Part shown: positions 10,934 through 34,795 of the stretch, one piece after another | How positions within the stretch are numbered: the first letter of the stretch is position 1 | Layout of the letters: each line of letters starts with the position of its first letter | Assembly: GCA_040376925.1 (NCBI GenBank) | Contig: JBEIPU010000003.1 | Span: 1,798 to 65,797 of the forward strand | Reading direction: 5' to 3' | From: Caenimonas sp. | Lineage (GTDB): Bacteria > Pseudomonadota > Gammaproteobacteria > Burkholderiales > Burkholderiaceae_C | Length of the DNA: 64,000 nucleotides | Made by a program: the position numbers and the translations under genes | The notes under the pieces: model-generated | What the model was told of the DNA's origin: nothing | The model's database searches: none | The model's input: the letters and a program-made list of their open reading frames with translations, nothing else

Positions 10934-13225
10934 TCAGGCCACCAGTGTGATGGGCTCCAGCGCATCGCCGCTGGCCAGGATGCGGCCGATCACGGCCGTG
11001 TGTTCGTAGCCCGCCTGGCGCAGCGCGGCCACGCAGTGCTGCACGCGGTCCGCCGGCACGCTGGCCAGCAGGCCGCCCGCGGTTTGCGGGTCAAACAGCA
11101 GCGCGTAGCGCGGGTGGTTCACAAAATCGGCCTGGTTGCGCAAGGCCCGGCGCAGCCGCACATTGGCCGGCGCCAATGAGCTGGTGATGCCCGCGGCCAC
11201 GCATTCCTCTGCGCCGTCCATGATCGGCAGCGCGTGCAGCCAGAGCTCGGCGTCCACGCCCGACGGTTTGGTCATCTCCACCAGGTGGCCCAGCAGGCCA
11301 AAGCCCGTCAGGTCGGTGCAGGCGGTGGCGCCGTGCGCCAGCAGCAGCTGCGCGCCGCGCTGGTTGGACACCACCATGGACTGCAGCGCGGCATCTATCC
11401 AGCGCCCGCGCGCGGCGCCGCGCGCATGGGCCGCAAACAGCGTGCCGGTGCCCATGGGTTTGGTCAGGATGAGCGCGTCGCCGGGTTTCAGGCCGCCCTT
11501 GCGCAGCACGGTGCGCAGGTCGTCGTCCACCAGGCCGTTGATCGCAAAGCCCAGGGCCAACTCCTTGCCCTCACCGGTGTGGCCGCCCACCAGCGCGCAG
11601 TTGGCGGCGTTCAGCACCTCCATGGCGCCGGTCATCATCTGGAACAGCAGGTCTTCGACCTTGGACTCCAGCCCCGGCGGCACTGTGACCACAGCGGTGG
11701 CCGATTGCGGCTCGCCGCCCATGGCAAACACGTCGCCCAGCGCATGGTTGGCCGCGACCTTGCCAAACAGGTAGGGGTCGTCAATGAACGCACGAAAGAA
11801 GTCCACGGTATGCACCATGGCCTTGCCCGGTGGCACGCGTACCACGGCCGCGTCGTCCGGCGCGTGCAGGCCGATCACCACGTCGTCGCGGTCCACCGGG
11901 TGCAGCGCGCCAAGGGCCCGCTGCAGCACCGTGGCGCCCACCTTGGCGCCGCAGCCGCCGCAGCGCATCGCAATGGCCGAGATCGCCTGCTGCGACTCAT
12001 CGGCCGTCAGCGCCAGCTGCGGGGCAGCAGGCGCGCTGCGCTGTGCGTCCATGGGCGGGAATTCGCTGAAGCGCTGCATGAAGCGGCGGTCGATCCAGTC
12101 CTTCCAGCGCCAGACCCATTTACCGCCAAAGCGCAGGCCCAGCGGCCCCTGGCCGCGTGAGGCCACGGCATAACGGTCGCCGGTGCTGATCAGGGCCAGC
12201 CAGTGGCGCTGCGGGCGGTAGGGGCGCAGGGGCTCGCCGCGCGCACTGCGGCGCAGGTTGTCGGCCAGCGGCGCGCCCATGCGCACGGCAAACACGCCGG
12301 CCTTTTCCAGCGCTCGCGGCTCGAATGCCGCCACATCGCCCGCACAGAAGATGCGCGCATCGTTCACGCTTTGCAGCTGGGCATTGACGCGCACAAAACC
12401 GTTGTCGTCCAGCGCCAGCCCGGTGCTGCGCAGCCACGCGGGGCCGCCGGCCTGCGTGACCCACATGATTTCGTCGGCAGCCAGCTTCTGGCCGTCCATG
12501 GTGGCAAGCTTGCCGGCGGTGACTTCGCGCACCTCGGCGCCGGTGTGTACCTGCACGCCGCGCTGGGCCAGCACCCGCGCAAAGCGCGCGCGCACGCCGG
12601 CGTTGTGCGTGGGCATGATGTGCGCGTCGCGCGTGAACAGGTGAAACACCAGCTCGTCCGGGTTGCGCCCGAGCGCCTGCAGCTCGCGTCGCAGCCGGTA
12701 CTGCATCGCCAGCGTCAGTTCCACGCCGCCCGCGCCGCCGCCCACCACGGCGATGGTGGTGGTGCCCGCATGGGAGCGCGCCCGCTCCAGCAGCGCCAGC
12801 CAGCGCTGGTTGAACTGGTGGATGGGTTTGACCGGCACGGCGTGCTCGGCCGCGCCCGGCACCCGCGCGACCTGCGGCGTGGAGCCGGTGTTGATGGCGC
12901 ACAGGTCGTACGGCACCGGCGGGCGGTTTCGGCACAGCACCTTGCCCGCTGCGAGGTCAATGCCAACCACTTCGTCACGGTAAAAGCGCGCACCGGCAAA
13001 CACCGCCAGGCGCCCGAGGTCGATGTGCACATCGTCGTAGCCATAGTGGCCGGCGATGTAGCCCGGCAGCATGCCTGAATAGGGCGTGTGGGCGTCGGTG
13101 CAGATCAGCGTGAGGCGCACGCCGGGCTCGGGGTTCATGCCAAATCGGCGCAGCACACCCACATGGCTGTGGCCACCGCCAATCAGCACAATGTCGCGCA
13201 GCACGGGTTGGTCGGTCAATTGCAT
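10934..13225 (-). CDS. selD: bifunctional pyridine nucleotide-disulfide oxidoreductase / selenide,water dikinase (SelD; SenC role)
   Basis: N-terminal IVLIGGGHSHVG and IAVVGGGAGGVE Rossmann motifs. C-terminal SelD domain from AMRCGGCGAKVG (Cys-type active site). ATG 13225 overlaps the senB stop by 1 nt. Confidence 0.85.
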   Translation of the reverse strand: MQLTDQPVLRDIVLIGGGHSHVGVLRRFGMNPEPGVRLTLICTDAHTPYSGMLPGYIAGHYGYDDVHIDLGRLAVFAGARFYRDEVVGIDLAAGKVLCRNRPPVPYDLCAINTGSTPQVARVPGAAEHAVPVKPIHQFNQRWLALLERARSHAGTTTIAVVGGGAGGVELTLAMQYRLRRELQALGRNPDELVFHLFTRDAHIMPTHNAGVRARFARVLAQRGVQVHTGAEVREVTAGKLATMDGQKLAADEIMWVTQAGGPAWLRSTGLALDDNGFVRVNAQLQSVNDARIFCAGDVAAFEPRALEKAGVFAVRMGAPLADNLRRSARGEPLRPYRPQRHWLALISTGDRYAVASRGQGPLGLRFGGKWVWRWKDWIDRRFMQRFSEFPPMDAQRSAPAAPQLALTADESQQAISAIAMRCGGCGAKVGATVLQRALGALHPVDRDDVVIGLHAPDDAAVVRVPPGKAMVHTVDFFRAFIDDPYLFGKVAANHALGDVFAMGGEPQSATAVVTVPPGLESKVEDLLFQMMTGAMEVLNAANCALVGGHTGEGKELALGFAINGLVDDDLRTVLRKGGLKPGDALILTKPMGTGTLFAAHARGAARGRWIDAALQSMVVSNQRGAQLLLAHGATACTDLTGFGLLGHLVEMTKPSGVDAELWLHALPIMDGAEECVAAGITSSLAPANVRLRRALRNQADFVNHPRYALLFDPQTAGGLLASVPADRVQHCVAALRQAGYEHTAVIGRILASGDALEPITLVA

Positions 13226-14211
13226 CAGGGCTTCCAGAGTTGGTCGACCAGGCGGCACAGCGCGGCCTGCTCGTTACCGGGTTCAAACAGGGGTGCGCGC
13301 CGCGCGCACTGCGCGGTCAGCCGCGCCATCAGGTCGCGCGGACCGGGGTGCGCAAGGCCTGCATGGCAGCGCAGCAGCAGGGCCGCCAGGCCGGCGGCGT
13401 CGCCGGGCTCAAAGTAGCCCGCGTAGCCCGTGCCCAGCATGCCGGTGTTGCCGTCAATGCGCGAGGCCAGCACCGGCGTGCCACAGCGCACGGCCTCCAT
13501 CACCACATGGGCGCCGCCTTCCATGCGGCTGGCATGCACCAGCAGGTGGGCGCGCTGGATGCGCCGGCGCGTGGCCTCATGCGCCAGCGCGCCCAGCCAG
13601 CGGTAGCCATGGCATTCGCGCATGGTGCTGCGCGCGGCGCGGCCCAGCGCCGCGTCCAGCGGCGCGCCGATGTGATCTATGCGGATGCCGGGCTCGTTGC
13701 GCAGCAGACGCGCGGCGGCCATCAGCGTCAGCGGGTCTTTCTCGTCACGCAGGTGGCCCACCATCACGGCACGCAGGTGGCGGTGTGTTTTGGGCAGGGT
13801 GGCGCGCTGTGACGTGGACTGGTAGATGACGCGGGCCTTGGCGCGCAGCGCTGCCGGCAGGGCTCGCGGCGCCTGGTCCTGCAGCACCACCAGGCGCTGC
13901 GCGGCGTCCACGCACGCGCGCGCCGCCGGGCTGCTTTCAATGTCGCGGTATAGGTCGGTGCCGGTCAGCACCACCGCCAGGCCGCGCGTGCCGCGCGCCT
14001 GCACCCAGGCCTGCACGGCCGGGGCGGACTTGCGCGCATGCAGGGCCAGCATCACGTCGTCGGCCTCCGCCGCAGCGTCGGGCCAGTCGCGCACGATGCG
14101 GGCAGAATGGCAGGCTCCGAGCATGCGTTGCCAGCGCCGCGCGGTCTGCCAGTTGCCGTTGTTGGCATCCGCCAGCGCGGGGCTCACGATCACGACGTTC
14201 GCTCGGTTCAT
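13225..14211 (-). CDS. senB: selenoneine-pathway selenosugar synthase-like glycosyltransferase (SenB-like)
   Basis: ATG 14211 (track start 14526 is a GC artefact). N-terminus VVIVSPALADANNGNWQTARRW and GT-B-like C-terminal half. Translationally coupled to selD. Confidence 0.7.
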   Translation of the reverse strand: MNRANVVIVSPALADANNGNWQTARRWQRMLGACHSARIVRDWPDAAAEADDVMLALHARKSAPAVQAWVQARGTRGLAVVLTGTDLYRDIESSPAARACVDAAQRLVVLQDQAPRALPAALRAKARVIYQSTSQRATLPKTHRHLRAVMVGHLRDEKDPLTLMAAARLLRNEPGIRIDHIGAPLDAALGRAARSTMRECHGYRWLGALAHEATRRRIQRAHLLVHASRMEGGAHVVMEAVRCGTPVLASRIDGNTGMLGTGYAGYFEPGDAAGLAALLLRCHAGLAHPGPRDLMARLTAQCARRAPLFEPGNEQAALCRLVDQLWKP

Positions 14212-14225
14212 GAAAGGGTTATAGC

Positions 14226-15401: not shown

Positions 15402-15412
15402 AAAACGGTGTT

Positions 15413-17410: not shown

Positions 17411-17434
17411 GGCACACACGTAAGGCATACACCC

Positions 17435-18268: not shown

Positions 18269-18275
18269 CCCCCGC

Positions 18276-19118: not shown

Positions 19119-19122
19119 ACCG

Positions 19123-19950: not shown

Positions 19951-19960
19951 AAGGGTTCCC

Positions 19961-20623
19961 ATGCGTGCCTGGCTGATCCGAACTCTGATACTGGCCGGCG
20001 CCGCGCTGCTGTCGGCCTGCGGCACACCCTATGCCACCGTGCCTAACAAGGCAGGCGAGCCCGTGATGCTGCTGGGCCATGACCCGGTGGCGTACTTCAC
20101 CCAGGGCAAGCCGGTGCGCGGCACGCCGGCCAACAAGGTGAGCCTGCCTGAGCGCACCTATTACTTTGCCAGCGCCGAACACCAGCGCCTGTTCCAGGCC
20201 GACCCGGCCAGGTACGAGCCGCAGTACGGCGGCTTTTGCGCCAGCGGCGCGGCCTTTGCCATCAAGCTGGGCAGCGACCCCACGGCCTGGCAGATCTACA
20301 ACGGCCGCCTGTTCATCTTCGGCGACGCCTTGGGCCAGACCGCCTGGGCCGTGGACCCGGCCTGGAACGTGGGCCATGGCGACCGCCTGTGGCCGGGCAT
20401 ACAGGACAAGGGTTGGCGGGCTGCATCGCTTGCGGCCTACACCAGCAAGGTACCCCACTACAAAACCGGTGCACAGATCAAGGCCGAACACGAAGCCAAA
20501 AACCCCGGCCAACCCTGGCCTGCCTACAACCCGGGCGGCATGGTGACCAACCTGTTCTTGAAGCGGCCTGGCTGGCGTGCGGCTGAGGGGTTTGGGCAGC
20601 CTGCGGTGGGGTATCCGGAGTAA
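19961..20623 (+). CDS. YHS domain-containing lipoprotein (Cys form of the YHS (seleno)protein family)
   Basis: ATG 19961, 10 nt after the permease stop. Lipobox LLSAC. HDPVAYF and QYGGFCASG motifs (TGC codon). Confidence 0.7.
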   Translation: MRAWLIRTLILAGAALLSACGTPYATVPNKAGEPVMLLGHDPVAYFTQGKPVRGTPANKVSLPERTYYFASAEHQRLFQADPARYEPQYGGFCASGAAFAIKLGSDPTAWQIYNGRLFIFGDALGQTAWAVDPAWNVGHGDRLWPGIQDKGWRAASLAAYTSKVPHYKTGAQIKAEHEAKNPGQPWPAYNPGGMVTNLFLKRPGWRAAEGFGQPAVGYPE

Positions 20624-20674
20624 TTTTCTCCGGCTGACAGCGCCCGTCCCGCCGGGCGCCTCAGCCGGAGAAAA
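20624..20674. terminator. 51-nt compound palindrome filling the spacer between the convergent YHS genes
   Basis: Perfect 14-bp arms TTTTCTCCGGCTGA / TCAGCCGGAGAAAA enclosing a 7-bp inner stem GCGCCCG/CGGGCGC. There is no free U-tail on either strand. Confidence 0.55.
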
Positions 20675-20676
20675 GA

Positions 20677-21273
20677 TTACTTCCGAGCCTTCGCATCCGC
20701 AACCATCTTCGCCAGCTCTTCACCGCTTTTGTAATGCGGCACGCGCAGCACCATGCGCTTGCTGCGCTGGATGAAGCTGTTGCTGCCGCTGACTTCTTCC
20801 TTCCAGTACTTGTCGGCCATCGCAACGTTGGCTTTCTCGTCGAGCAGGAAGGCGTCCATGGAGCCGCGCCCGCCGAAGATGTACAGCTTGCCGTCCACCA
20901 TCTTCCAGGTGTCTGCGTCGCCGCCCCAGGGGATGCCGTAGACGATGCCGTTGGCGCAATAGCCGCCGTACTGGGGCAGGTACTTGGCGGGCTCCTTGTC
21001 AAACAGCGCCTTGTGTTCGGCGCTGGCAAAGCGGAAGTCCACGCCCTGGTAGCTGCTGCGGTATTGCGGGCTGCCCTGGGCGAACTTGCCCTGGGTGAAG
21101 TAGGCCACCACGTCGGCGCCCTTGAGCATCAGGCGGCCTTCGGGGTTGTCGGCCACGGCGTTCACGGGCTTGAGCGTGCCCGAGGGGTTTTGCGCGGTGA
21201 TGGCGCCGCAGCCGGCCAGGGCGGCCACCAGGATGGCAGCGCCGCCGGTGCGCAGCAGGACAGAAGAGGTCAT
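20677..21273 (-). CDS. YHS domain-containing lipoprotein, paralog 2
   Basis: Lipobox LAGC. ADVVAYF and QYGGYCANG motifs (TGC codon). ATG overlaps the ATP-grasp stop (ATGA). Confidence 0.7.
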   Translation of the reverse strand: MTSSVLLRTGGAAILVAALAGCGAITAQNPSGTLKPVNAVADNPEGRLMLKGADVVAYFTQGKFAQGSPQYRSSYQGVDFRFASAEHKALFDKEPAKYLPQYGGYCANGIVYGIPWGGDADTWKMVDGKLYIFGGRGSMDAFLLDEKANVAMADKYWKEEVSGSNSFIQRSKRMVLRVPHYKSGEELAKMVADAKARK

Positions 21274-22664
21274 GGGAAAGTCTCCGGGGTTGTAGGTTCA
21301 GTGTGACGTGGAGTGTGAGCCCTGCCGGGGCCCGGCAGTTCCCGCCCCGGTGCGTGGGCATGCAGGTCGGCATACGGCGGCGTCCAGCCCAGCAACGAGC
21401 TGGCCACCTCGCAGCGCCGGCGCAGGTCGGCCGCGTCGGCACCGCCCAGGTGCACGATGCCGTAGCGGTGGCTGCCCAGCCATTTGAAGTCGCGCGCCAC
21501 CGAGCCCGCGGTTTTGGGGAACTCCAGCAACAGCGCGTCGGGGTAGGCCTCGTGGAACACCTGGCGCTGCAAGGCCGTGGGTACCGGCGGCGCGCGCCAC
21601 GGGTCGAACAGCCGGTACACAAAGCTCGCCGCAGCGCCTGCCGTGGGCGTGCGGCGCGGCACAGCCGCCGGGTCCTGCCCGTGGGCCAGCGCAAACGCCA
21701 TGTCGTGCAGGTTGATGCCGTCCACGCGCTGGTACAGGTCCGAGAACTGCGACGCCAGGCGCGGGTTGAACTCAATCACCGTGACGCGGCCGGTGGCCGG
21801 GTCATGGAAAAACTCCATGTTGAACATGCCGTGGGTGAAGCCCACCTCGGCCAGGAAACGGCGCGCGACGTCGGCCGCGCGCGCCACCACATCCGCGGGC
21901 AGGCGGGTGGGGTAGTCAAACCGCATGAACGATTCCGTGCCCGGGTACATCTGGATGTCCACACACCCCAGCAGGTGCATCTGGCCGCCCTGCACATAGC
22001 CGTCCAGGCAGTACTGCGGCGCGTCCACCACGGCTTCGGTCATCAGGCTGTGGGCCGTGCCGGCCTCGGGCAGGCGCTTGGCCACGACGCGTTCAAACGG
22101 CTCGACCAGGTGGCGGATGACCCACAGCTCCCAGGCACCAAAACGGGTGTGGGCATGAAGTTCGTCGTGGCTCTTCACGGTGCGCGCCAGCACCGAAAAG
22201 GCCGCCTTCACCGGCTTGACGAACAGCGGGTAGGCCAGGCCCTGTGGCACCGGGCCGCCGTATTTCGCATCAAGCCGTGCAAACGGCGGGTTGGCGTCGG
22301 GGCAGATGCGCTGCAGCACCTCGCGCGCGTACAGCTTGTGCTGGCAGGCCAGCACGGCCTTGACCGGCGTGCCGGGCCAGCCCATGCGCTCGGCCAGCAG
22401 CGCGGCGGCCAGCGCGCCAAACTGCTCGTGGTTGGACACCACGGCCTTCAGGCCCATGCGCCGGGCGCGGCGCGCCCACAGCGCCACAAAGCGGTCCATG
22501 TCAAACCAGGCCAGCCGTGCGTTGCTGGGAAAGCTGAACAGGTCAAAGCCTGCGCTGATGTGCGGCCAGCGCTGCGCCAGCCGGGCAAATTCGCGCTGGT
22601 CCCAGTCGTAGTTGAACAGGACCAGCGTGGCGGGGTGGTGGGAGTGCATGGGGGGCTTACGCAT
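21270..22664 (-). CDS. ATP-grasp domain protein
   Basis: ATG 22664 (1-nt overlap with the upstream stop) or ATG 22649. ATP-grasp core YPLFVKPVKAAFS ... VIEFNPRLASQF. Confidence 0.7.
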   Translation of the reverse strand: MRKPPMHSHHPATLVLFNYDWDQREFARLAQRWPHISAGFDLFSFPSNARLAWFDMDRFVALWARRARRMGLKAVVSNHEQFGALAAALLAERMGWPGTPVKAVLACQHKLYAREVLQRICPDANPPFARLDAKYGGPVPQGLAYPLFVKPVKAAFSVLARTVKSHDELHAHTRFGAWELWVIRHLVEPFERVVAKRLPEAGTAHSLMTEAVVDAPQYCLDGYVQGGQMHLLGCVDIQMYPGTESFMRFDYPTRLPADVVARAADVARRFLAEVGFTHGMFNMEFFHDPATGRVTVIEFNPRLASQFSDLYQRVDGINLHDMAFALAHGQDPAAVPRRTPTAGAAASFVYRLFDPWRAPPVPTALQRQVFHEAYPDALLLEFPKTAGSVARDFKWLGSHRYGIVHLGGADAADLRRRCEVASSLLGWTPPYADLHAHAPGRELPGPGRAHTPRHTEPTTPETFP

Positions 22665-23392
22665 CAGGGGGCGAGCTGGATGTCGGCGATCCAGGCCAGG
22701 CTGCGCGCGCCGGTGTTGTCGGCGTCGGCGCCTACCGCCACCGCCTGCAACGGGGGCAGGGTGGGGCTTTCGCTGCCGAACAGGCGGGCAAAGTCGGCCT
22801 GGAGGTTGCGCTGGTGGCTGCGCCACTGGCCGGTCGGGCTGGCGGCGCCGTCCAGCACCAGGTAGCGCACCCGGGCTGAATACGCATTGGGCAGCACGGT
22901 GCCCTGCGCCAGGGTCACGTCCCACACATAGCAGACGGTGGCAGCCGGCAGGGGCTCGCCCGACACGGCGCGTGCCAGGCGCAGCAGGCTGCGCTCCACG
23001 AACGGCACGCGGTCCAGCGGCATGTCAAACATCAGGCAGACCTTGAGCGCGGCGTCATCAGCGTCCTTGCGGCGCAGGTCGGCCCCTGCCACGGGCTGGT
23101 CCAGCCGCCAGCGCCAGCGCAGCGTGGCCTCGCGGCCGGCCAGCCAGCCGTTCAGGTCGTGCACCAGGCTGGCGTACGACGCGTCGGCACGCAGTCGCAG
23201 CGCGGGCGCGCCGTCCAGCGTGGCGATGTCCATGGCAGTGAGCGGCGCCTTGTTGTTTGGCAGGCCCACGGTGCGCCACGCTGCCGCTGCCAGCGGTGCC
23301 AGCAGCGGCCCATGCTGCGCGGGCTGGGCCAGCGCGCTAGCGGCCCAGATCGTTAAGAGACCAGTCGTAGTCCAGGTGCGTGATCGGAACAT
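22664..23392 (-). CDS. DUF3047 domain protein, secreted
   Basis: Signal peptide MFRSRTWTTTGLLTIWAASALAQP. DDAALKVCLMFD and CYVWD motifs recalled for DUF3047. Confidence 0.65.
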   Translation of the reverse strand: MFRSRTWTTTGLLTIWAASALAQPAQHGPLLAPLAAAAWRTVGLPNNKAPLTAMDIATLDGAPALRLRADASYASLVHDLNGWLAGREATLRWRWRLDQPVAGADLRRKDADDAALKVCLMFDMPLDRVPFVERSLLRLARAVSGEPLPAATVCYVWDVTLAQGTVLPNAYSARVRYLVLDGAASPTGQWRSHQRNLQADFARLFGSESPTLPPLQAVAVGADADNTGARSLAWIADIQLAP

Positions 23393-24155
23393 TGCGGGCC
23401 CTGATTTTCTCGCGGTCGGCCGGTGCGTCGGCCAATTGGTCGGCGTAGCGTGCCATCACGTCTTCCAGCTTGTTGAAACCCTTGTGGCCTTTTTCAAAGT
23501 CTTCGCGGAACCACTTGAAGATCATGTTGACCTGCAGCTTGCCGTCGGCATAGCGGTTGCGGGTGCGGTCGCCCATGAAGCGCAGCATGCCGTCGTCCAG
23601 CTGCGCGTCCAGCCTGGCCGCCACAAAGGCCTCGGGCCGCAGCGCCGGGCAGCCGATGCTGGCGCAGTTGACGGCGGCGTGCACGCGTGGCTCGCTGTAC
23701 CGGGGGCGCAGCTGCTCGTGCTCGATCCAGTCCAGGTGGCGCGGCTCGCCCAGCAGGGTGAAGAACTTGTTCTTCCACGGCGACTGCAGCAGCGAGCCCA
23801 GGTCCTTGATCGACTTGAGGCCGGGGTATTTGGTCAGGATCAGCTCCACGGTGAAGCCGTTGTAGGCGTTGATCAGGAACGCCATCTGCTGCTCGCGCGG
23901 CAGCGCGGCAAACTGCGCGGGCGTCACGGCCGACCATTCGGCCAGCACGGCCTTGAGCGCGGCGCGGTCGGCGGCAAAGCCCTTGTAGTCCACGCGCGAC
24001 TGCTTGTTGTCGGGCAGCCATTTCACATGCTTTTTGAGCAGGGCGTCCCAGGCGGCGTAGCCGGTGTCCAGCGCGGCGGCCGGGGCCCAGGCCGCGGGCG
24101 CGGCTGCAGCGAGCGCGCCGGTGGCGATGAGGTGCAGGGCGGTGCGGCGCTTCAT
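23337..24155 (-). CDS. DUF547 domain protein, secreted
   Basis: ATG 24155 gives signal peptide MKRRTALHLIATGALAAAAPAAWA. ATG 24194 would overlap the upstream stop (ATGA). FLINAYNGFT and HAAVNCASIGCPAL motifs. Confidence 0.7.
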   Translation of the reverse strand: MKRRTALHLIATGALAAAAPAAWAPAAALDTGYAAWDALLKKHVKWLPDNKQSRVDYKGFAADRAALKAVLAEWSAVTPAQFAALPREQQMAFLINAYNGFTVELILTKYPGLKSIKDLGSLLQSPWKNKFFTLLGEPRHLDWIEHEQLRPRYSEPRVHAAVNCASIGCPALRPEAFVAARLDAQLDDGMLRFMGDRTRNRYADGKLQVNMIFKWFREDFEKGHKGFNKLEDVMARYADQLADAPADREKIRARNVPITHLDYDWSLNDLGR

Positions 24156-24190
24156 GGTGTCGGCCTTGCGGAGTTGGAGTGGGTGGGCGT

Positions 24191-26353
24191 TCATCTGCGC
24201 TTCCAGTCGTGGTATTTGCGCACCCATTGCAGCAGCTGGTGCGGCTGGTGTGCGCGCTTCCATTCACCGGCGGCGTATTTGTTGGCCTCTGACAGCGTGG
24301 GGTAGGTGTGGATGGTGCCCAGCATCTTGTTCAGGCCCAGGCCGTGTTTCATGGCCAGCACGTATTCAGCCAGCAGGTCGCCTGCGTGCGTGCCCACGAT
24401 GGTCACGCCCAGGATGGTGTCCTTGCCCGGCATGGTCAGCACCTTCACAAAGCCATGGGCTTCGCTGTCGGCAATCGCGCGGTCCAGGTCGTCAATGCCG
24501 TATTTCGTGACTTCATAGGCAATGTTCTTTTCCTTCGCGTCCTGCTCGTTCAGGCCCACGCGCGCGACCTCGGGGTCAATGAACGTGGCCCAGGGGATCA
24601 CGCTGTAGTCCGCCTTGAATTTCTTGAAGTCGCCAAACAGCGCATTCACCGCCGCGTACCAGGCCTGGTGCGCCGCCACATGGGTGAACTGGAACGGGCC
24701 CGCCACGTCGCCCGCCGCATAGATGTTGGGGTAGATCGTCTGCAGGTACTCGTTGGTATCCACCGTCTTCTGCGTGGGGATGCCCAGATCCTCCAGGCCG
24801 TAGCCCGTCAGGCGCGCCGTGCGGCCCACGGCGCACAGCAGCGCGTCAAAGGCAATGCGCTTTTCGGCTCCGTTGTGTTCCACCACCAGCACCTTGGTCT
24901 CACCCTCACGTTCGCAGCGCAGCGCCTTGTGGCCGGTCAGCACCTGTACGCCGTCGGCTGTGAGCGCGTCGCGCGCCAGGGCCGAGACCTCAACGTCTTC
25001 GCGGATCATGATGCGCGCGGCCATCTCCACCTGTGTGACCTGCGAGCCCAGCCGCGCGAAGCTTTGCGCCAGCTCGCAGCCGATCGGCCCGCCGCCCAGC
25101 ACCACCAGGCGCTGGGGGATGTCGTCCAGCTGGGCAAAGGTGCTCCACAGCGTGTCACTGGTCACGTAGCCCACGTCCTGAAGCCCCGGCAGCGGCGGCA
25201 CAAAGGGGCGGGCGCCGGCGGCAATGACGATGTTGCGCGTGGTCACCACCTGTTTGCCGCCGCCGTTCAGCGCCACCTCCACCGTCCAGGGGTTGATGAT
25301 CTTGGCGTAGCCCTGCAGCACCTCCACGCCCAGACTGGTGTAGCGCTCCACGCTGTCGTGCGGCTCGATCGCGGCGATCACGTCGTGGATGCGCTGCATC
25401 ACCGCGCGGAAGCTGAAGGTGGGTGCGGCGTCGTTCAGACCGTAGCGGTGAGCGTGGCGCATCTGGTGCGCCAGCTTGGCGCTCTTGATCAGTGCCTTGC
25501 TGGGCACGCAGCCGTAGTTCAGGCAGTCGCCGCCCATCTTGTGGGCTTCCACCAGCGTGACCCTGGCCTTGACCGCCGCGGCAATGTAGGCCGACACCAG
25601 CCCGCCCGCGCCCGCGCCGATCACCACCAGGTTGCGGTCAAATGTCTTGGGCCGCACTGCGCGCCAGCGCGCATAGACCTTGCGCTTTTGCACGGCCTCA
25701 ACAAGCTTGCGCGCCACCAGCGGAAAGATGCCCAGCAGCACAAAAGAACCCAGCAGCCCCGGCGACAGGATGCCGCGCAGCGATTCAATCTGCGCCAGCT
25801 GCGTGCCCGCGTTCACAAACACCGCCGTGCCCGCCAGCATGCCCAGCTGGCTGACCCAGTAAAACGTCCAGGCCCGCATCTGGGTCAGGCCCATCACCAG
25901 GTTGATCACAAAAAACGGCACAACCGGGATCAGCCGCAGCGTGAACAGGTAAAACGCGCCGTCTTTCTGCACGCCGCGGTTGATTTCGGCCAGCCGGTTG
26001 CCAAAGCGTGCCTCGATGCTGTCGCGCAACACAAACCGCGCCACCAGGAACGCCAGCGTCGCGCCCGCGCTGGACGCAAAAGACACGACCAGCAGCCCCC
26101 AGCCCAGGCCAAAGATCGCGCCGCCGGCCAGCGTAAGGATGGTGGCGCCGGGCAGTGACAACGCCGTGGCCGCGACATAGATCAGGAAATAAGTGCCGGC
26201 CACCAGCAGCGGCCGTGTCTGCACCAGCGCGGCAAACTGCGACTGGCTCTGCTTGAGGTAGTCCAGGCTCAGGAACCGGCCCAGGTCCAGCGCGAAAAAG
26301 GCGGCAACCGCCGCCACGACCAGCACGACAAGGACGATTTTTTTGGTGTTCAT
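24191..26353 (-). CDS. TVP38/TMEM64 membrane domain fused to class-I pyridine nucleotide-disulfide oxidoreductase
   Basis: N-terminal polytopic domain (DGAFYLFTLRLIPVVPFFVINLVMG). Then VVIGAGAGG, redox CLNYGCVPSK, second Rossmann VVLGGGPIGCE, and HTYPTLSE in the dimerisation domain. Confidence 0.85.
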   Translation of the reverse strand: MNTKKIVLVVLVVAAVAAFFALDLGRFLSLDYLKQSQSQFAALVQTRPLLVAGTYFLIYVAATALSLPGATILTLAGGAIFGLGWGLLVVSFASSAGATLAFLVARFVLRDSIEARFGNRLAEINRGVQKDGAFYLFTLRLIPVVPFFVINLVMGLTQMRAWTFYWVSQLGMLAGTAVFVNAGTQLAQIESLRGILSPGLLGSFVLLGIFPLVARKLVEAVQKRKVYARWRAVRPKTFDRNLVVIGAGAGGLVSAYIAAAVKARVTLVEAHKMGGDCLNYGCVPSKALIKSAKLAHQMRHAHRYGLNDAAPTFSFRAVMQRIHDVIAAIEPHDSVERYTSLGVEVLQGYAKIINPWTVEVALNGGGKQVVTTRNIVIAAGARPFVPPLPGLQDVGYVTSDTLWSTFAQLDDIPQRLVVLGGGPIGCELAQSFARLGSQVTQVEMAARIMIREDVEVSALARDALTADGVQVLTGHKALRCEREGETKVLVVEHNGAEKRIAFDALLCAVGRTARLTGYGLEDLGIPTQKTVDTNEYLQTIYPNIYAAGDVAGPFQFTHVAAHQAWYAAVNALFGDFKKFKADYSVIPWATFIDPEVARVGLNEQDAKEKNIAYEVTKYGIDDLDRAIADSEAHGFVKVLTMPGKDTILGVTIVGTHAGDLLAEYVLAMKHGLGLNKMLGTIHTYPTLSEANKYAAGEWKRAHQPHQLLQWVRKYHDWKRR

Positions 26354-27471
26354 GTGTTCTCCTGCAACCTGCCGGCCAGGCGCAAACCGCCCATTGGAGC
26401 ATAGCCAGCGCGTGAGGCCATGGCCGGTTGCGGGACGGTGAAGCGGTAGAAGAAGTTGCCGTCGCGCACCGGGTGCTCACCCGTCACATGCTCGATCAGC
26501 CCGAAGCGCAGCAGGCGGTTGAGCAGGATCTCGGCCTCATGCGATCGCAGCTTGAGCCGCCGGGCCAGCCACTGCACGGCCTCGGCCCCCACAAAGCAGC
26601 GCGCGTAGGTGGTGCCCAGGTAGGTCCGGTCTTTCACGTCCAGGCCCGAAGGCTGGCTCACCAGGGCATACACCGCGCCCAGGTTCCAGCGGTCCACGGC
26701 GCTGGCCAGCGTGGGGCGGTAAAAGTTGGGCAGGTCGGCAAACGGCTGTTCATGCACCACATGCTGCAGCAGGTCCAGCGCCTGCAGGTCCAGCCCCAGG
26801 CGTACGGCGGCCGGCCGCTTGAGCTTGAAGCGGTTGCCCAGCCAGTCCACCACCTCGGTGCCGGTGTGGCACGACGGGTAGGTCTTGAAGTGGTACATGC
26901 GGTCGATGGCCTTGACGTGGCTGGCCATGGCGTGGCACAGCGCCTCGGCCGTGAGGCCGGTGGCGCGGCGGATGCGGTGGCGCGGCGCGGCATCGTCCAG
27001 CTTGACCTGCATGGCACTGAAGTACTGGGCCAGCGCCTCGGGCGGCAGCGGCGGTGCGCCTGCCAGGCGCGCCAGGCATTCCACCAGCGGCTGGCCCGGC
27101 TGTGCCAGCGACACCGGGTCCAGGTCGGCCCACAGCCCGGCAAAGCCCAGCTCCAGCGCCCAGGCCTGCTCGGTGGGCCACAGCCCGGCCAGCTCGCGCG
27201 TGAGCACGACGCGGGCACGGCGCTGGGGATCGGGCAGCGCCGCAGCCAGGGCGATCAGGCTGGAGGCCGCCGGGGCGATGGCCGCCATGTCAATCACGGC
27301 CACGCTGTGCGGCTGGGCCACCAGCGCGGCGTCCAGCCGGGCCAGCGCGTCGGGCCCGGCCACCAGGTCGGCCGGCGGCTGGCGCATGGCCATGCAGACA
27401 GCGCGCAGGGCCTGGCGGGCAGCGTCTGATGCCAGGCACAGCCAGACAGTGGGAGGCAGGGGGGTGTTCAT
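26350..27471 (-). CDS. tandem DEP-domain protein with receiver-like N-terminal region
   Basis: Two DEP-like repeats (YPSCHTGTEVVDWL...LLQHV...FYR and YARCFVGAEAVQWL...RSHEAEILLNRLLRFGLIEHV...FFYRF). Stop overlaps the next ATG (ATGA). Confidence 0.65.
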   Translation of the reverse strand: MNTPLPPTVWLCLASDAARQALRAVCMAMRQPPADLVAGPDALARLDAALVAQPHSVAVIDMAAIAPAASSLIALAAALPDPQRRARVVLTRELAGLWPTEQAWALELGFAGLWADLDPVSLAQPGQPLVECLARLAGAPPLPPEALAQYFSAMQVKLDDAAPRHRIRRATGLTAEALCHAMASHVKAIDRMYHFKTYPSCHTGTEVVDWLGNRFKLKRPAAVRLGLDLQALDLLQHVVHEQPFADLPNFYRPTLASAVDRWNLGAVYALVSQPSGLDVKDRTYLGTTYARCFVGAEAVQWLARRLKLRSHEAEILLNRLLRFGLIEHVTGEHPVRDGNFFYRFTVPQPAMASRAGYAPMGGLRLAGRLQENT

Positions 27472-27500
27472 GGGCGGCAACCAGTGGGGTGGACCAACCG

Positions 27501-30661: not shown

Positions 30662-30692
30662 GTGAGTCATGGCGGGGCCTGCTTTCTTACCC
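30662..30692 (-). promoter_or_regulatory. shared promoter-region box, copy B (upstream of the RR/HK operon)
   Basis: 30673-30692 CGGGGCCTGCTTTCTTACCC. See copy A. Confidence 0.35.
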
Positions 30693-30776
30693 AATTGTTA
30701 TCCAGTTGTGATCTTTCGTGAGGGCGGCGTGAGCCTGGGCGCCCACAGTCCATCCATCGACACCGAAGGACACACC

Positions 30777-31337
30777 ATGCAAGCCCCCACACCCGCCCAG
30801 ACCGACGCCCTGAACCCGCTTGACTGCGTGGTGGAGGGCGCCCAGCTGCACCCCCACCGCGCCTACCTGCTGCGCGTGGCCCGCAACAAGCTGCGCGACC
30901 CGGCGCTGGCCGAGGACGCAGTGCAGGATGTGTTCGAGGCCGTGCTGGCCGGTCGCGCCCGGTTTGGCGGGCGCAGCGCCCTGCGCACCTGGCTCACCGG
31001 CATCCTGCTGCACAAGGTGACCGACCTGCAGCGCCAGGGCATGCGCTACTGCGCGCTGGACGCCGGGCGTGACGACGATGACGAAGCTGCCGACGCGCAC
31101 GACACCGCCTGCGACGCCCCCGGCCCCGAAGACAGCGCCGGGCAGCGCGAGCTGCTGGCGCGCACGCTGGCCTGCATCGACCGCCTGCCCGCTGCGCTGC
31201 GCGACGTGATGTGGCGCCGCGCCATCCATGACGAGCCGACCGAAACCGTGTGCCGCCAGCTGGGCATCACGCCCGACGCGATGTTTGTGCGCCTGCACCG
31301 CGCCCGCCGCCAGATTGAAGCCGCCGTGCTGTGCTGA
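30777..31337 (+). CDS. ECF-type RNA polymerase sigma factor
   Basis: ATG 30777. Region 2 (AEDAVQDVFEAV...LRTWLTGILLHKVTD) and region 4 (LPAALRDVMWRR...QLGITPDAMFVRLHRARRQI). Confidence 0.8.
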   Translation: MQAPTPAQTDALNPLDCVVEGAQLHPHRAYLLRVARNKLRDPALAEDAVQDVFEAVLAGRARFGGRSALRTWLTGILLHKVTDLQRQGMRYCALDAGRDDDDEAADAHDTACDAPGPEDSAGQRELLARTLACIDRLPAALRDVMWRRAIHDEPTETVCRQLGITPDAMFVRLHRARRQIEAAVLC

Positions 31338-31417: not shown

Positions 31418-32494
31418 ATGCCTGACGACAGCGCCACCTTGACCGCCCGCCTGGCTGCTGCCCTGCAGGGCAGCAACAGCCCCTGGGCCGGCGCTGCGCT
31501 GGAGCGCCTGCCTGACAAGGGCCTGGCGCACGACCATGTGCGCATCAACGGCAGCGGGCTGCTGGCGCGCATCCCCAAGCAAAGCCAGATGCGCCTGGCG
31601 CCCGCCGACAACCTGGCCTACCAGGCCGCGTGCTTTGAACGCGCCGCCGTCGGCGGCCATGCCCCGCGCCTGCACGGCGTGCTGGCGCCGTCGGCCCAGT
31701 TACCGCGTGGCGCGCTGCTGGTGCAGGAGGTGGTGGGCCGCGCGGCTGCCCTGCCGGCTGATCTGCCCGCCATCGTGCAGGCGCTGGCCGCGCTGCATGC
31801 GCTGCCCCTGCCCGCGCCGCACGCGCGCCGCCCGCTGCTGGACGACGCCGATGCGCTGGCCGCACTGTATGAAGAGCTGGCGCAGCAGGCGCAGTACCTG
31901 GCGGCGGCTGGCGTGGCCCCCGCCGTGGCCCGTGCCGTGACGCAGGAGCTGCAGCGGCTGAACGCGTTGTGCGCCGCCGACGCCCGGCCGCCGCGCCACC
32001 TGATCGCGTTTGACGGCCACCCGGGCAACTTCATCGTGCAGGGCCACGGGCACGCCGTGCTGGTGGACCTGGAGAAATGCCGCTACAGCTACCCCGCGCT
32101 GGACATCGCCCATGCGACGCTCTACACGTCCACCACGTGGGACGAGGAATCCAGTGCCGTGCTCACGCCCGCACAGGTGCAGGGCGCCTACGCCGCCTGG
32201 GCGGCCGCCGTGGGCCCGCGCGTGGCCGGCCCGGCGCAGGCCTGGCATGTGCCGCTGCGCCGCGCCATGTGGTTGTGGTCCATCACCTGGTGCGCCAAAT
32301 GGCGTGTGCTGTCTGCTGCCGGTGCGCCGCTGGATGCGGCGGGCGAGGACTGGTCCGCCGGCCAGAGTGACGCCGCACTGGTGGCCCATGTGCGTGGCCG
32401 GGTGGACCATTACCTCGGCGCCGATGTGGTGGCGCGCATGCGGGACGAATTTGACGCGCTGGAGGCTGCACTGGCCCAGGCGCCTGCTTCATGA
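31418..32494 (+). CDS. APH/choline-kinase-fold phosphotransferase
   Basis: Catalytic loop LIAFDGHPGNFIV and metal-binding VLVDLEKCRYSYPALDIAH. Confidence 0.7.
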   Translation: MPDDSATLTARLAAALQGSNSPWAGAALERLPDKGLAHDHVRINGSGLLARIPKQSQMRLAPADNLAYQAACFERAAVGGHAPRLHGVLAPSAQLPRGALLVQEVVGRAAALPADLPAIVQALAALHALPLPAPHARRPLLDDADALAALYEELAQQAQYLAAAGVAPAVARAVTQELQRLNALCAADARPPRHLIAFDGHPGNFIVQGHGHAVLVDLEKCRYSYPALDIAHATLYTSTTWDEESSAVLTPAQVQGAYAAWAAAVGPRVAGPAQAWHVPLRRAMWLWSITWCAKWRVLSAAGAPLDAAGEDWSAGQSDAALVAHVRGRVDHYLGADVVARMRDEFDALEAALAQAPAS

Positions 32495-33801
32495 CGCTGG
32501 CCATCATCGTGCCCGTGCTGAACGAAGGCGCCGCGCTGGCCGCGCGGCTGCAGGCGCTGCAGCCGTTGCGCAGCCGGGGCGCCGAGCTGATGGTGGTGGA
32601 CGGCGGCAGCACCGATGGCAGCGTGGCTGTGGCCGCAGCGCTGGCCGACCAGGTGCTGACCGCGCCGCGCGGGCGCGCCGCCCAGATGAACGCCGGGGCC
32701 TGCGCCACGCGGGCCGGCACGCTGCTGTTCCTGCATGCCGACACGCAACTGCCGCCCGACGCCGATGCATTGATTGAACAGGCCCTGGATGCCGGCTGTG
32801 CATGGGGCCGATTCGACGTGCACATTGCCGGTGCCCACCCACTGTTGCCCATGGTGGCGGCTTTCATGAACGCGCGCTCGCGCATTACCGGCATCGCCAC
32901 CGGCGACCAGGCGATGTTTGTGCGCCGGGCCGTGTTCAACGCCGTGGGCGGTTTTGCGCCGCAGCCGCTGATGGAAGACATCGCCCTGAGCCGCCGCCTG
33001 CGCGCCGTGGGTGCCCCGGCCTGCCTGGCCGCGCGCGTCATCACATCGGGCCGCCGCTGGGACGAGCACGGCCTGTGGCGCACCATCGCTTTGATGTGGC
33101 GGCTGCGCGCGGCGTACTTTCTGGGGGCCAGCCCGCAGGCCCTGGCCGCGCGCTACGGCTATGCCACCCGCGCACCGGCAGCGCTGGCCATCCTGGCCAA
33201 GGCGCCGGTGCCGGGTCTGGCCAAAACCCGGCTCATTCCCGCTTTGGGTGCCGCCGGTGCGGCCCGCGCGCAGCGCGGCTTTGCGCTGCAAACGCTGGCC
33301 ACCGCGCGCGCCGCAGCCACCGGCTCCGTGGCGCTGTGGTGCGCGCCCGATGCACGCCACCGTTTCTTTGCCGCCTTGCGCGCGCGCCACGGCGTGGCCT
33401 GCGAGACGCAACCCGGCGGCGACCTGGGGGAGCGCATGGGCATGGTGATGCGCCGGCACTTTGCCGCTGCGCCCGCGATGCCGCTGCTGATCGTGGGCAC
33501 AGACTGCCCGGTGCTGACGCCGGCGCACCTGCAACAGGCCGCTGACCTGCTGCAGAAGAACGACGCCGTGCTGATCCCGGCCGAAGACGGCGGCTATGTG
33601 CTGATCGGCCTGCGCCGGCCCCTGCCTTCGGTATTTGAAGGCATCACCTGGAGCACGCCGCAGGTGCTGATGCAAACCCGCGAGCGGCTGCTGGCTGCGG
33701 GCGTGAGCTGGCAGGAGCTGCCCGCGCTGTGGGATGTGGATGAGCCGCTGGACTGGGCGCGGTGGCAGCGCCAGCGCGACAAGGAGAAACGCATTGACTG
33801 A
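32491..33801 (+). CDS. fused GT2-like (TIGR04283-like) / DUF2064 (TIGR04282-like) transferase
   Basis: N-terminal half: IIVPVLNEG, VVDGGSTDGS, GRAAQMNAGA, LFLHADT, GDQAMF, MEDIALS. C-terminal half: KAPVPGLAKTRL, VGTDCP, EDGGYVLIG. ATGA overlap with the kinase. Confidence 0.7.
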   Translation: MTLAIIVPVLNEGAALAARLQALQPLRSRGAELMVVDGGSTDGSVAVAAALADQVLTAPRGRAAQMNAGACATRAGTLLFLHADTQLPPDADALIEQALDAGCAWGRFDVHIAGAHPLLPMVAAFMNARSRITGIATGDQAMFVRRAVFNAVGGFAPQPLMEDIALSRRLRAVGAPACLAARVITSGRRWDEHGLWRTIALMWRLRAAYFLGASPQALAARYGYATRAPAALAILAKAPVPGLAKTRLIPALGAAGAARAQRGFALQTLATARAAATGSVALWCAPDARHRFFAALRARHGVACETQPGGDLGERMGMVMRRHFAAAPAMPLLIVGTDCPVLTPAHLQQAADLLQKNDAVLIPAEDGGYVLIGLRRPLPSVFEGITWSTPQVLMQTRERLLAAGVSWQELPALWDVDEPLDWARWQRQRDKEKRID

Positions 33802-34795
33802 GGCCCTGACACTTCAACGCCCCGACGACTGGTACCGCGCCCGCCTGGCCCCGCCCACCGGCCGCGTGCGCGTGGTGATCGACACCGACACCGCCAACGA
33901 AATAGACGACCAGTTTGCCCTGGCCTGGGCGCTGCGCTGCCCGCAGCAGCTGGACGTGGTGGCGGTGTATGCCGAGCCGTTCTCCTTTGCGCACCGGCGC
34001 GCCAGTTACCCGGCAGGCGCGCACGACGCGCCGCCGTTCAACCCGCCGGCGCAGGGCATGGAGCGCAGTTACCAGGAAATCATCAAGGTGTACGGGCTGC
34101 TGGGCCTGCCGCATGCGGGCCGCGCATACCGCGGCGCTGCGGCCTACATGGCGCAGCCGCACACGCCGGTGCACAGCGAAGCGGTCGACCACTTGATTGC
34201 CACCGCGCGCGAACACACGCCCGACGGGCCACCCCTGTATGTGCTTGCGCTGGGCTGTGTGACCAACATTGCCAGTGCCTTGCTGCTGGCGCCGGACATT
34301 GCCGGGCGCATCGTGGTGGTGTGGACCAGCGGCTACCCCAGCCACGCGCCGCACATCAACCACAGCTTCAACCTGGAGCAGGACCTGTGGGCCAGCCAGT
34401 GGCTGCTGGACAGCGGCGTGCCCCATGTGTACCTGCCCGGCTACCATGTGGGCGCGCAGCTGCGCCTGTCGCTGGCCGAGGTGGATCGCTACGTGCAGGG
34501 CAGCGGCCCCATGGGCAGCTACCTGCACCAGCTGTTCACCCACAACCCGTTGTGGAGCATTCTGGGCACCCATCCCACGCAGGCCGGCGAGCCGCACAGC
34601 TGGGTGATCTGGGACCTGATCTGCATCGCCTGGGTACTGAACCCCGCCTGGGTGCCCAGCGAACTGGTGCGCACACCGGTGCTGACTGACGACAAACGCT
34701 GGCTGGCGCAGCCGGGTCGGCACTGGATGCGTGAAGGCCATGCAGTGGAGCGCGACGCGATTTTCAATTCCTTGTTTGATGCGCTGCGGCGTTAG
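33794..34795 (+). CDS. inosine-uridine-type nucleoside hydrolase
   Basis: TTG 33794 preceded by AAGGAG at 7 nt. VVIDTDTANEIDDQFALAWAL aspartate cluster. Confidence 0.8.
   Translation: MTEALTLQRPDDWYRARLAPPTGRVRVVIDTDTANEIDDQFALAWALRCPQQLDVVAVYAEPFSFAHRRASYPAGAHDAPPFNPPAQGMERSYQEIIKVYGLLGLPHAGRAYRGAAAYMAQPHTPVHSEAVDHLIATAREHTPDGPPLYVLALGCVTNIASALLLAPDIAGRIVVVWTSGYPSHAPHINHSFNLEQDLWASQWLLDSGVPHVYLPGYHVGAQLRLSLAEVDRYVQGSGPMGSYLHQLFTHNPLWSILGTHPTQAGEPHSWVIWDLICIAWVLNPAWVPSELVRTPVLTDDKRWLAQPGRHWMREGHAVERDAIFNSLFDALRR

Follow-up and report, generated by a model that had tools for sequence, protein, structure and literature searches.

A kinase-bearing, ArsS-less variant of the "arsenosugar" transferase cluster next to selenoneine genes in a Caenimonas genome

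The locus described here lies in a 64-kb stretch of DNA from Caenimonas sp. (assembly GCA_040376925.1, contig JBEIPU010000003.1, positions 1,798 to 65,797), which we call the window and the first letter of which is position 1 in all coordinates below. Three consecutive plus-strand genes encode a small-molecule kinase of the APH fold, a single polypeptide that joins a GT2 glycosyltransferase domain to a DUF2064 domain, and a divergent nucleoside hydrolase of the IU family (Table 1). The initial annotation had described these genes as coupled by two overlaps, and both are borne out by the open reading frames and the sequence: the kinase ends and the fusion begins within the ATGA at 32491-32494, with 4 nt shared, and the hydrolase start TTG 33794 overlaps the fusion stop TGA (33799-33801) by 8 nt. 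The sequence GGAG (33784-33787) is found six bases 5' of this TTG, and an alternative ATG start for the hydrolase frame exists upstream at 33734. No terminator-like site was found on the plus strand within the kinase, fusion and hydrolase genes. The three genes form one operon, and this trio is a lineage-specific (Comamonadaceae-like) variant of the ArsS-associated "arsenosugar" cluster that lacks ArsS in its neighbourhood. The window has a G+C content of 65-72% and is nearly identical to a Ramlibacter sp. metagenome-assembled genome, the fusion being 100% identical to the homologue P0121.

Table 1. Genes and domains of the trio and its surroundings in the window
Feature	Position	Strand	Family evidence
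SenC, TIGR03169 oxidoreductase domain fused to SelD	10934..13258	-	TIGR03169 503 bits, selD 295 bits
senB	~13225-14200	-	TIGR04348 424.5 bits
senA	14226-15401		NF041186 466 bits
egtD	15413-16381		
ATP-grasp protein, 551 aa	21270..22925	-	PF13535
DUF3047 protein	22664..23392	-	59% identical to DUF3047 of locus L001; PF11249 in homologues
DUF547 protein	23337..24263	-	PF04784 76.2 bits
VTT/DedA membrane domain fused to MerA-like pyridine-nucleotide-disulfide oxidoreductase (VTT-MerA), 720 aa	24191..26353	-	PF09335, PF07992, PF02852
Extracytoplasmic function (ECF) sigma factor, candidate operon regulator	30669..31337	+	TIGR02937 59.5 bits, Sigma70_r2/r4_2
APH-fold small-molecule kinase, 358 aa	31418..32494	+	PF01636 43.4 bits
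GT2+DUF2064 fusion, 436 aa	32491..33801	+	TIGR04283 and TIGR04282
N-terminal GT2 glycosyltransferase domain of the fusion	~32497-33156	+	TIGR04283
C-terminal DUF2064/CofC-like nucleotidyltransferase domain of the fusion	~33184-33756	+	TIGR04282
Divergent IU-family nucleoside hydrolase, 333 aa from TTG 33794	33794..34795	+	PF01156 60.7 bits

Both domains of the fusion belong to the transferase families that had been named for them at the outset, as both score above the curated cut-offs: 265.5 bits against TIGR04283 (cut-off 182; residues 3-222, model positions 1-221 of 221) and 198.5 bits against TIGR04282 (cut-off 134; residues 232-422, model positions 1-189 of 189). The Pfam models give 122.8 bits for DUF2064 (PF09837) and 46.1 bits for Glycos_transf_2, and the DUF2064 domain is also matched by the CofC model TIGR03552 (E 1e-10) and by PDB entry 3cgx (E 8.5e-19). 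The supposition that such a fusion had not been described proved wrong, because the architecture is widespread, in both domain orders, and has been named by JGI and NCBI. At least 120 clusters of the ~436-aa fusion, at 66-100% identity, came out of a homologue search (one cluster member, P0241, carries the name "Ramlibacter sp."), for which the JGI name is "rSAM/selenodomain-associated transferase 2/transferase 1", and an exhaustive search of representatives gave 28,730 relatives at E<=1e-3, including both domain orders and GT2-DUF2064-GT2 triple fusions. This last arrangement is seen in larger fusions such as P0388 (1143 aa), P0392, P0298, P0328 and others; one larger fusion has an N-terminal GT87 domain (GT-C, polyprenyl-phosphate-sugar dependent), which hints that the product could be passed on via a lipid carrier.

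The genomic context of these transferases was studied by scanning GTDB species genomes with a 13-sequence alignment, from which the best 80 loci, belonging to Proteobacteria and Nitrospira, were taken. The comparison covers 88 loci, 18 with the kinase gene (kinase-type, the window included) and 70 others, and their gene sets were established by local BLAST and by clustering of open reading frames with a GC3 filter for shadow frames in high-GC loci, together with HMM checks. Bona fide ArsS (TIGR04167, 452-453 bits for a cut-off of 300) lies no more than 10 kb from the transferases in 42 of the 70 non-kinase loci and abuts a transferase gene in about 20 of them, in agreement with the initial statement that these transferases usually accompany ArsS. 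Other recurrent members are a VTT/DedA-MerA-like fusion (~40-42 loci, counted at ~40 in a set of 84; PF09335, PF07992, PF02852), a stand-alone TIGR03169 oxidoreductase, the domain that is otherwise fused to SelD (19 loci; 319 bits, cut-off 310), DUF547 (~17-21 loci; PF04784), DUF3047 (~11-21 loci depending on the method; PF11249), an ArsM-like methyltransferase (14 loci; NF008823 170.8 bits, below the cut-off of 263) and a protein like methylthioadenosine phosphorylase (MTAP-like; 10 loci, PNP_UDP_1), which at 260 bits is below the TIGR01694 cut-off of 274.85 and is therefore a paralogue. ArsS adenosylates dimethylarsenite to 5'-deoxy-5'-dimethylarsinoyladenosine (PMC13598754).

Some non-kinase loci depart from this pattern. 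In the Nitrospira loci L031 (7177-11473), L036 and L054, a lysine-2,3-aminomutase-like radical-SAM protein and a dCTP-deaminase-like protein precede the transferase pair instead of ArsS, and these loci are a third, distinct context for TIGR04283/TIGR04282. The syntenic Psychrobacter clusters (TIGR03169 oxidoreductase, DUF547, glycosyltransferase, DUF2064, ArsM, MTAP-like) vary by species in the slot after the TIGR03169 gene, which holds either ArsS or VTT-MerA (L033/L035/L037 versus L042). A gene common to L010 and L083 upstream of the cluster is a DEAD-box helicase and is irrelevant.

The kinase was found only in L001-L014, L085-L088 and the window, that is in Ramlibacter, Hydrogenophaga, Rhodoferax, Variovorax, Brachymonas and other Burkholderiales. 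It stands directly 5' of the fusion in 18/18 kinase-type loci, the slot taken by ArsS in roughly half of the loci that have it nearby; the kinase-fusion pair of the window recurs in 17 further loci with 55-89% kinase identity, and the hydrolase is the next gene in 12 of these. With the window counted, 13 of the 18 kinase-type loci (17 of them informative) have the hydrolase gene behind the fusion, and the 70 others do not have it; the gene is missing from the Hydrogenophaga loci L002-L004 as well as from L086 and L087. ArsS occurs within 10 kb in 0/18 kinase-type versus 42/70 other loci (Fisher p=1.3e-6, uncorrected for kinship), and neither ArsM nor an MTAP-like gene lies within 10 kb in the 18 kinase-type loci. 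When ArsS, ArsM and MTAP-like proteins from related loci were used as queries, tblastn found no match in the 64 kb of the window, so that the absence of arsS and arsM noted initially is upheld as a statement about this neighbourhood. A homologue search with the Polaromonas ArsS returned only Polaromonas sequences (>=88% identity) and is silent on the Ramlibacter and Hydrogenophaga genomes. The MTAP-like gene and the hydrolase/kinase solution were never found together in the 88 loci, and this mutual exclusion, in clusters that are identical in other respects, is the chief ground for reading the hydrolase and kinase as a two-step replacement of the phosphorylase. The gene context of the kinase and hydrolase appears to be undescribed, as had been presumed: no account of these partners, of this cluster or of the downstream arsenosugar steps was found in the literature searched.

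Both transferase domains are present in 76 loci, as 21 true fusions, among which are all the kinase-type loci, and as 55 adjacent genes. A neighbour-joining tree built from the transferase domains groups the kinase-type fusions in a single clade, which branches from within the ArsS-type sequences of Betaproteobacteria. These fusions share 84/84 broadly invariant positions with the ArsS-linked homologues and have no clade-specific substitution among the positions conserved elsewhere; the transferase chemistry is therefore probably the same, with no sign of a changed sugar specificity. In 16 loci the glycosyltransferase and DUF2064 genes are separated by an in-frame stop, and read-through or selenocysteine insertion at this codon was considered and rejected, because 16 of 55 unfused pairs is close to the one third expected by chance and TGA, TAG and TAA are all used. 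In the Hydrogenophaga loci L002 (17862-20356) and L086 (17687-20222), a bufferin-type cluster for a ribosomally synthesised and post-translationally modified peptide (BufA1, MbnB/TglH, HvfC, DoxX) lies ~7 kb downstream of the kinase-type operon and is probably unrelated.

The kinase passes the gathering threshold of the Pfam APH model (23.2 bits), and none of 34 orthologues has a match in NCBIfam even at E<=1. In the 34 orthologues D199-x-H-P-G-N204, D217-L-E and K54 are invariant, and with its D-x-x-x-x-N loop and Mg-binding Asp intact the protein has the features of the APH/choline-kinase-like superfamily. Its AF2 model (pLDDT 90) was compared with the PDB by Foldseek, and is most similar in fold to choline/ethanolamine kinases (3dxq, human ChoK and LicA, 4r7b) and to APH(2''), at TM ~0.55-0.6; no MtnK structure was among the top 50 matches, and a profile search against PDB sequences gave nothing useful. 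The parallel with methylthioribose kinase drawn in the initial annotation thus stands for the APH fold and fails for kinship with MtnK, since TIGR01767 has no match at E<=1 in the 34 orthologues. We propose that the protein is an anomeric kinase for ribose or a 5-modified ribose. APH-fold anomeric kinases paired with nucleotidyltransferases have precedents in MtnK, NahK and AmgK/MurU.

The hydrolase exceeds the gathering threshold of the IU_nuc_hydro model (34.2 bits) and has weak matches to the IunH structures 3t8i and 6ba1. Three motifs, DTDxANEIDD, SFN and SWVIWD, are invariant in 11 orthologues. The first stands where canonical enzymes have the N-terminal DXDXXXDD calcium/ribose motif and has a two-residue insertion; in the second, Ser takes the place of the E-x-N Glu (SFN versus the canonical E-F/A-N), and variable residues are found at the positions where canonical enzymes carry G-N. 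In nucleoside hydrolases the E-x-N Glu and the G-N position contact the ribose 5'-OH, and the loss of these binding positions would be in keeping with a substrate that has no ordinary 5'-OH. The enzyme has Trp-Asp at what we take, from the spacing and the known nucleoside hydrolase groups, to be the position where IU-family enzymes have His-Asp, near residue 241. Ser191, the variable residue 189 and Trp273 would shape an altered 5'-pocket. Trp-Asp is the signature of purine-specific IAG-type nucleoside hydrolases, and from its residues the hydrolase is probably of the purine type.

On the minus strand, 5 kb 5' of the trio, the window carries DUF3047, DUF547 and VTT-MerA (22664-26353), the conserved partner module. 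Where the sequence reaches far enough upstream, VTT-MerA is divergent from the kinase and fusion in most kinase-type loci, as in L085, where the order is T3169< DUF3047< VTT-MerA< / kinase> fusion> hydrolase> (T3169, TIGR03169 oxidoreductase); in the ArsS-type cluster of Polaromonas L066 it is T3169< DUF3047< VTT-MerA< / MTAP-like> ArsS> GT> DUF2064>. This divergent operon belongs to the same system as the trio, a link that the initial annotation did not draw. The DUF547 protein probably starts at ATG 24155, which gives a signal-peptide-like N-terminus (MKRRTALHLIATGALAAAAPAAWA), the N-terminus of the DUF3047 protein is likewise signal-peptide-like, and to judge from these termini both proteins are apparently exported. 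The ATP-grasp gene is a possible accessory member of the minus-strand operon; it recurs next to DUF3047/DUF547/VTT-MerA or the transferases in at least five further loci, which belong to different lineages (L005, L007, L016, L078 and L081). A minus-strand gene (26350-27480) separates VTT-MerA from a histidine kinase/response regulator pair; it encodes a bacterial protein with two DEP domains (PF00610 114 bits) and is kept in L005 and L007. The DEP domain is best known from eukaryotic signalling. The ECF sigma factor gene ends 80 nt 5' of the kinase, and such a gene also precedes the kinase in L005, L007 and L008, without being kept in all kinase-type loci; regulation of the trio operon by this factor is possible.

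Further upstream, positions 10934-16381 hold a complete selenoneine cluster, in which SenC is a linked neighbour of the trio system and not a core part of it. SelD lies within ~10 kb of VTT-MerA, in varied arrangements, in 7 of the 10 kinase-type loci with enough flanking sequence (the window, L001, L002, L003, L008, L086 and L088), and in only 1-2 of the 70 non-kinase loci. In the closely related 4.88-Mb genome of L088, a SelD fusion, DUF3047/VTT-MerA and the trio are found within 10 kb, with no senA or senB within +/-10 kb, and the Rhodocyclaceae locus L078, without ArsS or kinase nearby, also abuts a full sen cluster. An arsenic-only reading leaves this SelD association unexplained, and selenium may have a role. 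We also considered, and rejected, a recycling of GlcNAc to UDP-GlcNAc for SenB by the kinase and nucleotidyltransferase, given that the fusion is an unchanged orthologue of the ArsS-linked enzymes and that the GT2 domain would be left without a role. Directly 3' of senC, a stand-alone VTT/DedA protein (9306-10016, minus strand) and a patatin-like phospholipase (10013-10924, minus strand) are encoded by genes that overlap by 4 nt, an arrangement which suggests that a step on lipids or membranes is co-transcribed with the synthesis of selenophosphate. On the other side of the cluster, in 16544-21273, a putative selenate ABC transporter (TIGR04553 357 bits, PhnC/PhnE-like subunits) is followed by two convergent genes of a YHS-domain (seleno)protein family (NF041384), apparently of the non-Sec kind.

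Taken together, the genes can be arranged in a pathway. In ArsS-type clusters, an MTAP-type phosphorylase would turn the nucleoside into a 5-modified alpha-ribose-1-phosphate in one step. In the kinase-type lineage, where ArsS and ArsM have left the cluster, the hydrolase and kinase would stand in for this single MTAP-like enzyme: the hydrolase would cleave the base off an adenosine-type nucleoside, 5'-modified or plain, and the kinase would phosphorylate the anomeric carbon of the freed ribose derivative to give a (5-modified) ribose-1-phosphate. The DUF2064 domain, which is CofC/MobA-like, would then couple the sugar-1-phosphate to a nucleoside monophosphate, giving a nucleoside diphosphate sugar (NDP-sugar), and the GT2 domain, of an inverting family, would move the ribosyl unit onto an acceptor to form a beta-riboside. 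CofC/MobA-like nucleotidyltransferases could make an NDP-sugar from a sugar-1-phosphate; GT2 enzymes invert, and arsenosugars are beta-ribofuranosides. The succession from nucleoside to ribose, ribose-1-phosphate, NDP-sugar and glycoside, which had been proposed from the gene content of the window, gains comparative support from the MTAP-like alternative in the ArsS-type clusters. We consider this enzymatic logic (hydrolase, kinase, DUF2064, GT2), in which we infer every step, to have an even chance of being correct whatever the 5-substituent. As to that substituent, our rough ranking places a dimethylarsinoyl group first, as a tentative choice, then a methylthio group, hydrogen or hydroxyl as a possible one, while a selenium group seems unlikely and any other group more unlikely still.

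Several observations weigh against this pathway. The name "arsenosugar glycosyltransferase" rests on gene neighbourhood only. The MTAP-like gene is present in only 10 of the 70 non-kinase loci, so that the complementarity rests on modest numbers, and since all kinase-type loci belong to one clade they amount effectively to a single evolutionary event. The hydrolase is optional, being missing from 4-5 kinase-type loci. The kinase has no detectable kinship to MtnK or to any curated family, and its nearest folds, the choline/ethanolamine kinases, act on non-sugar alcohols. Furthermore, in the sister clade ArsS frequently lies at a distance of 5-9 kb or beyond the flank covered (L053, L056, L083) and may therefore lie elsewhere in kinase-type genomes too, and an arsenic pathway does not account for the recurrent adjacency of SelD.

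The detachment of ArsS in the sister clade, together with the unchanged transferase sequence, would also suit a conventional arsenosugar pathway, dependent on an ArsS and an ArsM encoded elsewhere in the genome, in which hydrolase and kinase have replaced the MTAP-like gene. This is compatible with the enzymatic logic above and differs from it only in the origin of the substrate; the lack of ArsS within 10 kb in all 18 kinase-type loci, the absence of ArsM from the same loci and, weakly, the fact that the best 80 genome matches include no second transferase locus of a kinase-type assembly speak against it, and we find it possible but doubtful. The SelD counts speak for a further reading, a selenium-specific pathway to which the cluster would have been recruited in this clade. 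SelD and its TIGR03169 reductase partner would supply reduced or activated selenium, and the kinase, nucleotidyltransferase and glycosyltransferase would build a Se-riboside or lipid head group, the selenium analogue of arsenosugars, with no radical-SAM step. Read most boldly, the kinase-type cluster would be an ArsS-independent route, tied in function to SelD and the TIGR03169 reductase, to a ribosyl glycoside or lipid that carries selenium or another 5-modification. The selenium proposal overlaps the hydrolase-kinase pathway as the case where the 5-substituent is selenium. SelD, free or fused to TIGR03169, is as frequent near VTT-MerA in kinase-type loci as it is rare elsewhere, L078, with neither ArsS nor kinase, also abuts the sen genes, stand-alone TIGR03169 belongs to 19 transferase clusters, the window amounts to a selenium island through senA/B/C, egtD, the putative transporter and the two YHS genes, and no kinase-type locus has ArsM or ArsS. 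Yet no enzyme of the cluster is a candidate for forming a C-Se bond on ribose, the fusion sequence is unchanged with respect to orthologues from the arsenic context, SelD is not found within 10 kb in the kinase-type loci L009, L085 and L087, the adjacency could be synteny inherited within one family, and the trio genes are not mentioned in the sen literature. We judge a dedicated selenium pathway unlikely; if true, it would join the selenoneine and ovoselenol pathways as the third class dedicated to small selenium molecules, and would reveal the downstream ribose-1-phosphate, NDP-sugar and GT2 steps that it has in common with arsenosugar biosynthesis.

The structural matches of the kinase model raise another reading, that of head-group activation, where the kinase would act on a choline-, ethanolamine- or glycerol-like alcohol, DUF2064 would make an NDP-alcohol (by LicA/LicC or CofC logic), GT2 would use a separate donor and the hydrolase would be an unrelated salvage add-on. 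The resemblance of DUF2064 to CofC, which activates a phospho-acid and not a sugar, and the dispensability of the hydrolase in Hydrogenophaga-type loci agree with this. However, TM values of ~0.55-0.6 do not discriminate inside the APH superfamily, and two facts would be left unexplained, namely the restriction of the kinase to loci without ArsS and the MTAP-like gene and the translational coupling, in 13 of 18 loci, of a hydrolase devoid of the E-x-N Glu; head-group activation is accordingly an improbable account in our view. It is most improbable that the genes are neighbours by chance or that the kinase is an antibiotic-resistance APH, as might be thought from the generic APH model being its only family match: the coupling by start/stop overlaps and the gene order, kept over 18 loci in several genera at 55-89% identity, contradict a chance arrangement, and the neighbours include no resistance genes or mobile elements.

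The two alternative gene sets bear on a part of arsenosugar biosynthesis, the downstream route from the ArsS nucleoside to the glycosidic arsenosugar, of which the literature searched gave no description. They point to a route from 5-modified ribose-1-phosphate through an NDP-pentose made by DUF2064 to transfer by the inverting GT2 enzyme, and the same machinery is possibly used for selenium or for SAM by-products in the kinase-type variant. They also provide a first functional context for DUF2064, DUF547, DUF3047, the VTT-MerA fusion and an uncurated kinase family.

Among known systems, the closest is the ArsS/ArsM-linked arsenosugar cluster, of which the ArsS from Synechocystis has been characterised. 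The transferase pair is orthologous (45-65% identity, with the conserved positions kept), the accessory set is alike (VTT-MerA, DUF547, DUF3047 and TIGR03169, which in the window is the N-terminal domain of the SelD fusion), and the divergent layout of the kinase-type loci matches that of Polaromonas L066. By contrast, ArsS, ArsM and the MTAP-like gene are absent from the cluster and from the 64-kb window, the kinase-type loci add an APH-fold kinase upstream and an IU-type hydrolase downstream, the transferases are always fused, and the neighbours are SelD/selenoneine genes instead of ArsM. The sen cluster itself (SenA/SenB/SenC) is adjacent to the trio system in the window as well as in several related loci, and the TIGR03169 oxidoreductase links the two, being fused to SelD in the window and free in transferase clusters elsewhere; nevertheless, the trio is outside the defined three-gene sen cluster, and SenB, a selenosugar synthase of the GT-B kind, has no relation to the GT2 domain.

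Other pathways offer parallels for single steps. Methionine salvage and the DHAP (dihydroxyacetone phosphate) shunt present the same choice between one step (MtnP) and two (MtnN and MtnK, again with an APH-fold kinase) on the way to a 5-modified ribose-1-phosphate, but the nucleosidase of the trio has the IU nucleoside hydrolase fold and not that of Pfs/MtnN, its kinase is not MtnK, and its product would be nucleotidylated and transferred, not isomerised. In AmgK/MurU and NahK, as in the trio, the sugar-1-phosphate from an APH-fold kinase is turned by a nucleotidyltransferase into the NDP-sugar that a glycosyltransferase uses, whereas there is no detectable sequence kinship and the sugar of the trio would be a pentofuranose derived from a nucleoside. 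Finally, in the fluorinase (FlA-FlB) and chlorinase (SalL-SalT) pathways, an MTAP-like phosphorylase makes 5-X-ribose-1-phosphate from 5'-X-5'-deoxyadenosine; the cluster contains no halogenase homologue and the downstream steps differ, but these pathways are a precedent for the MTAP-like enzyme of the ArsS-type clusters.

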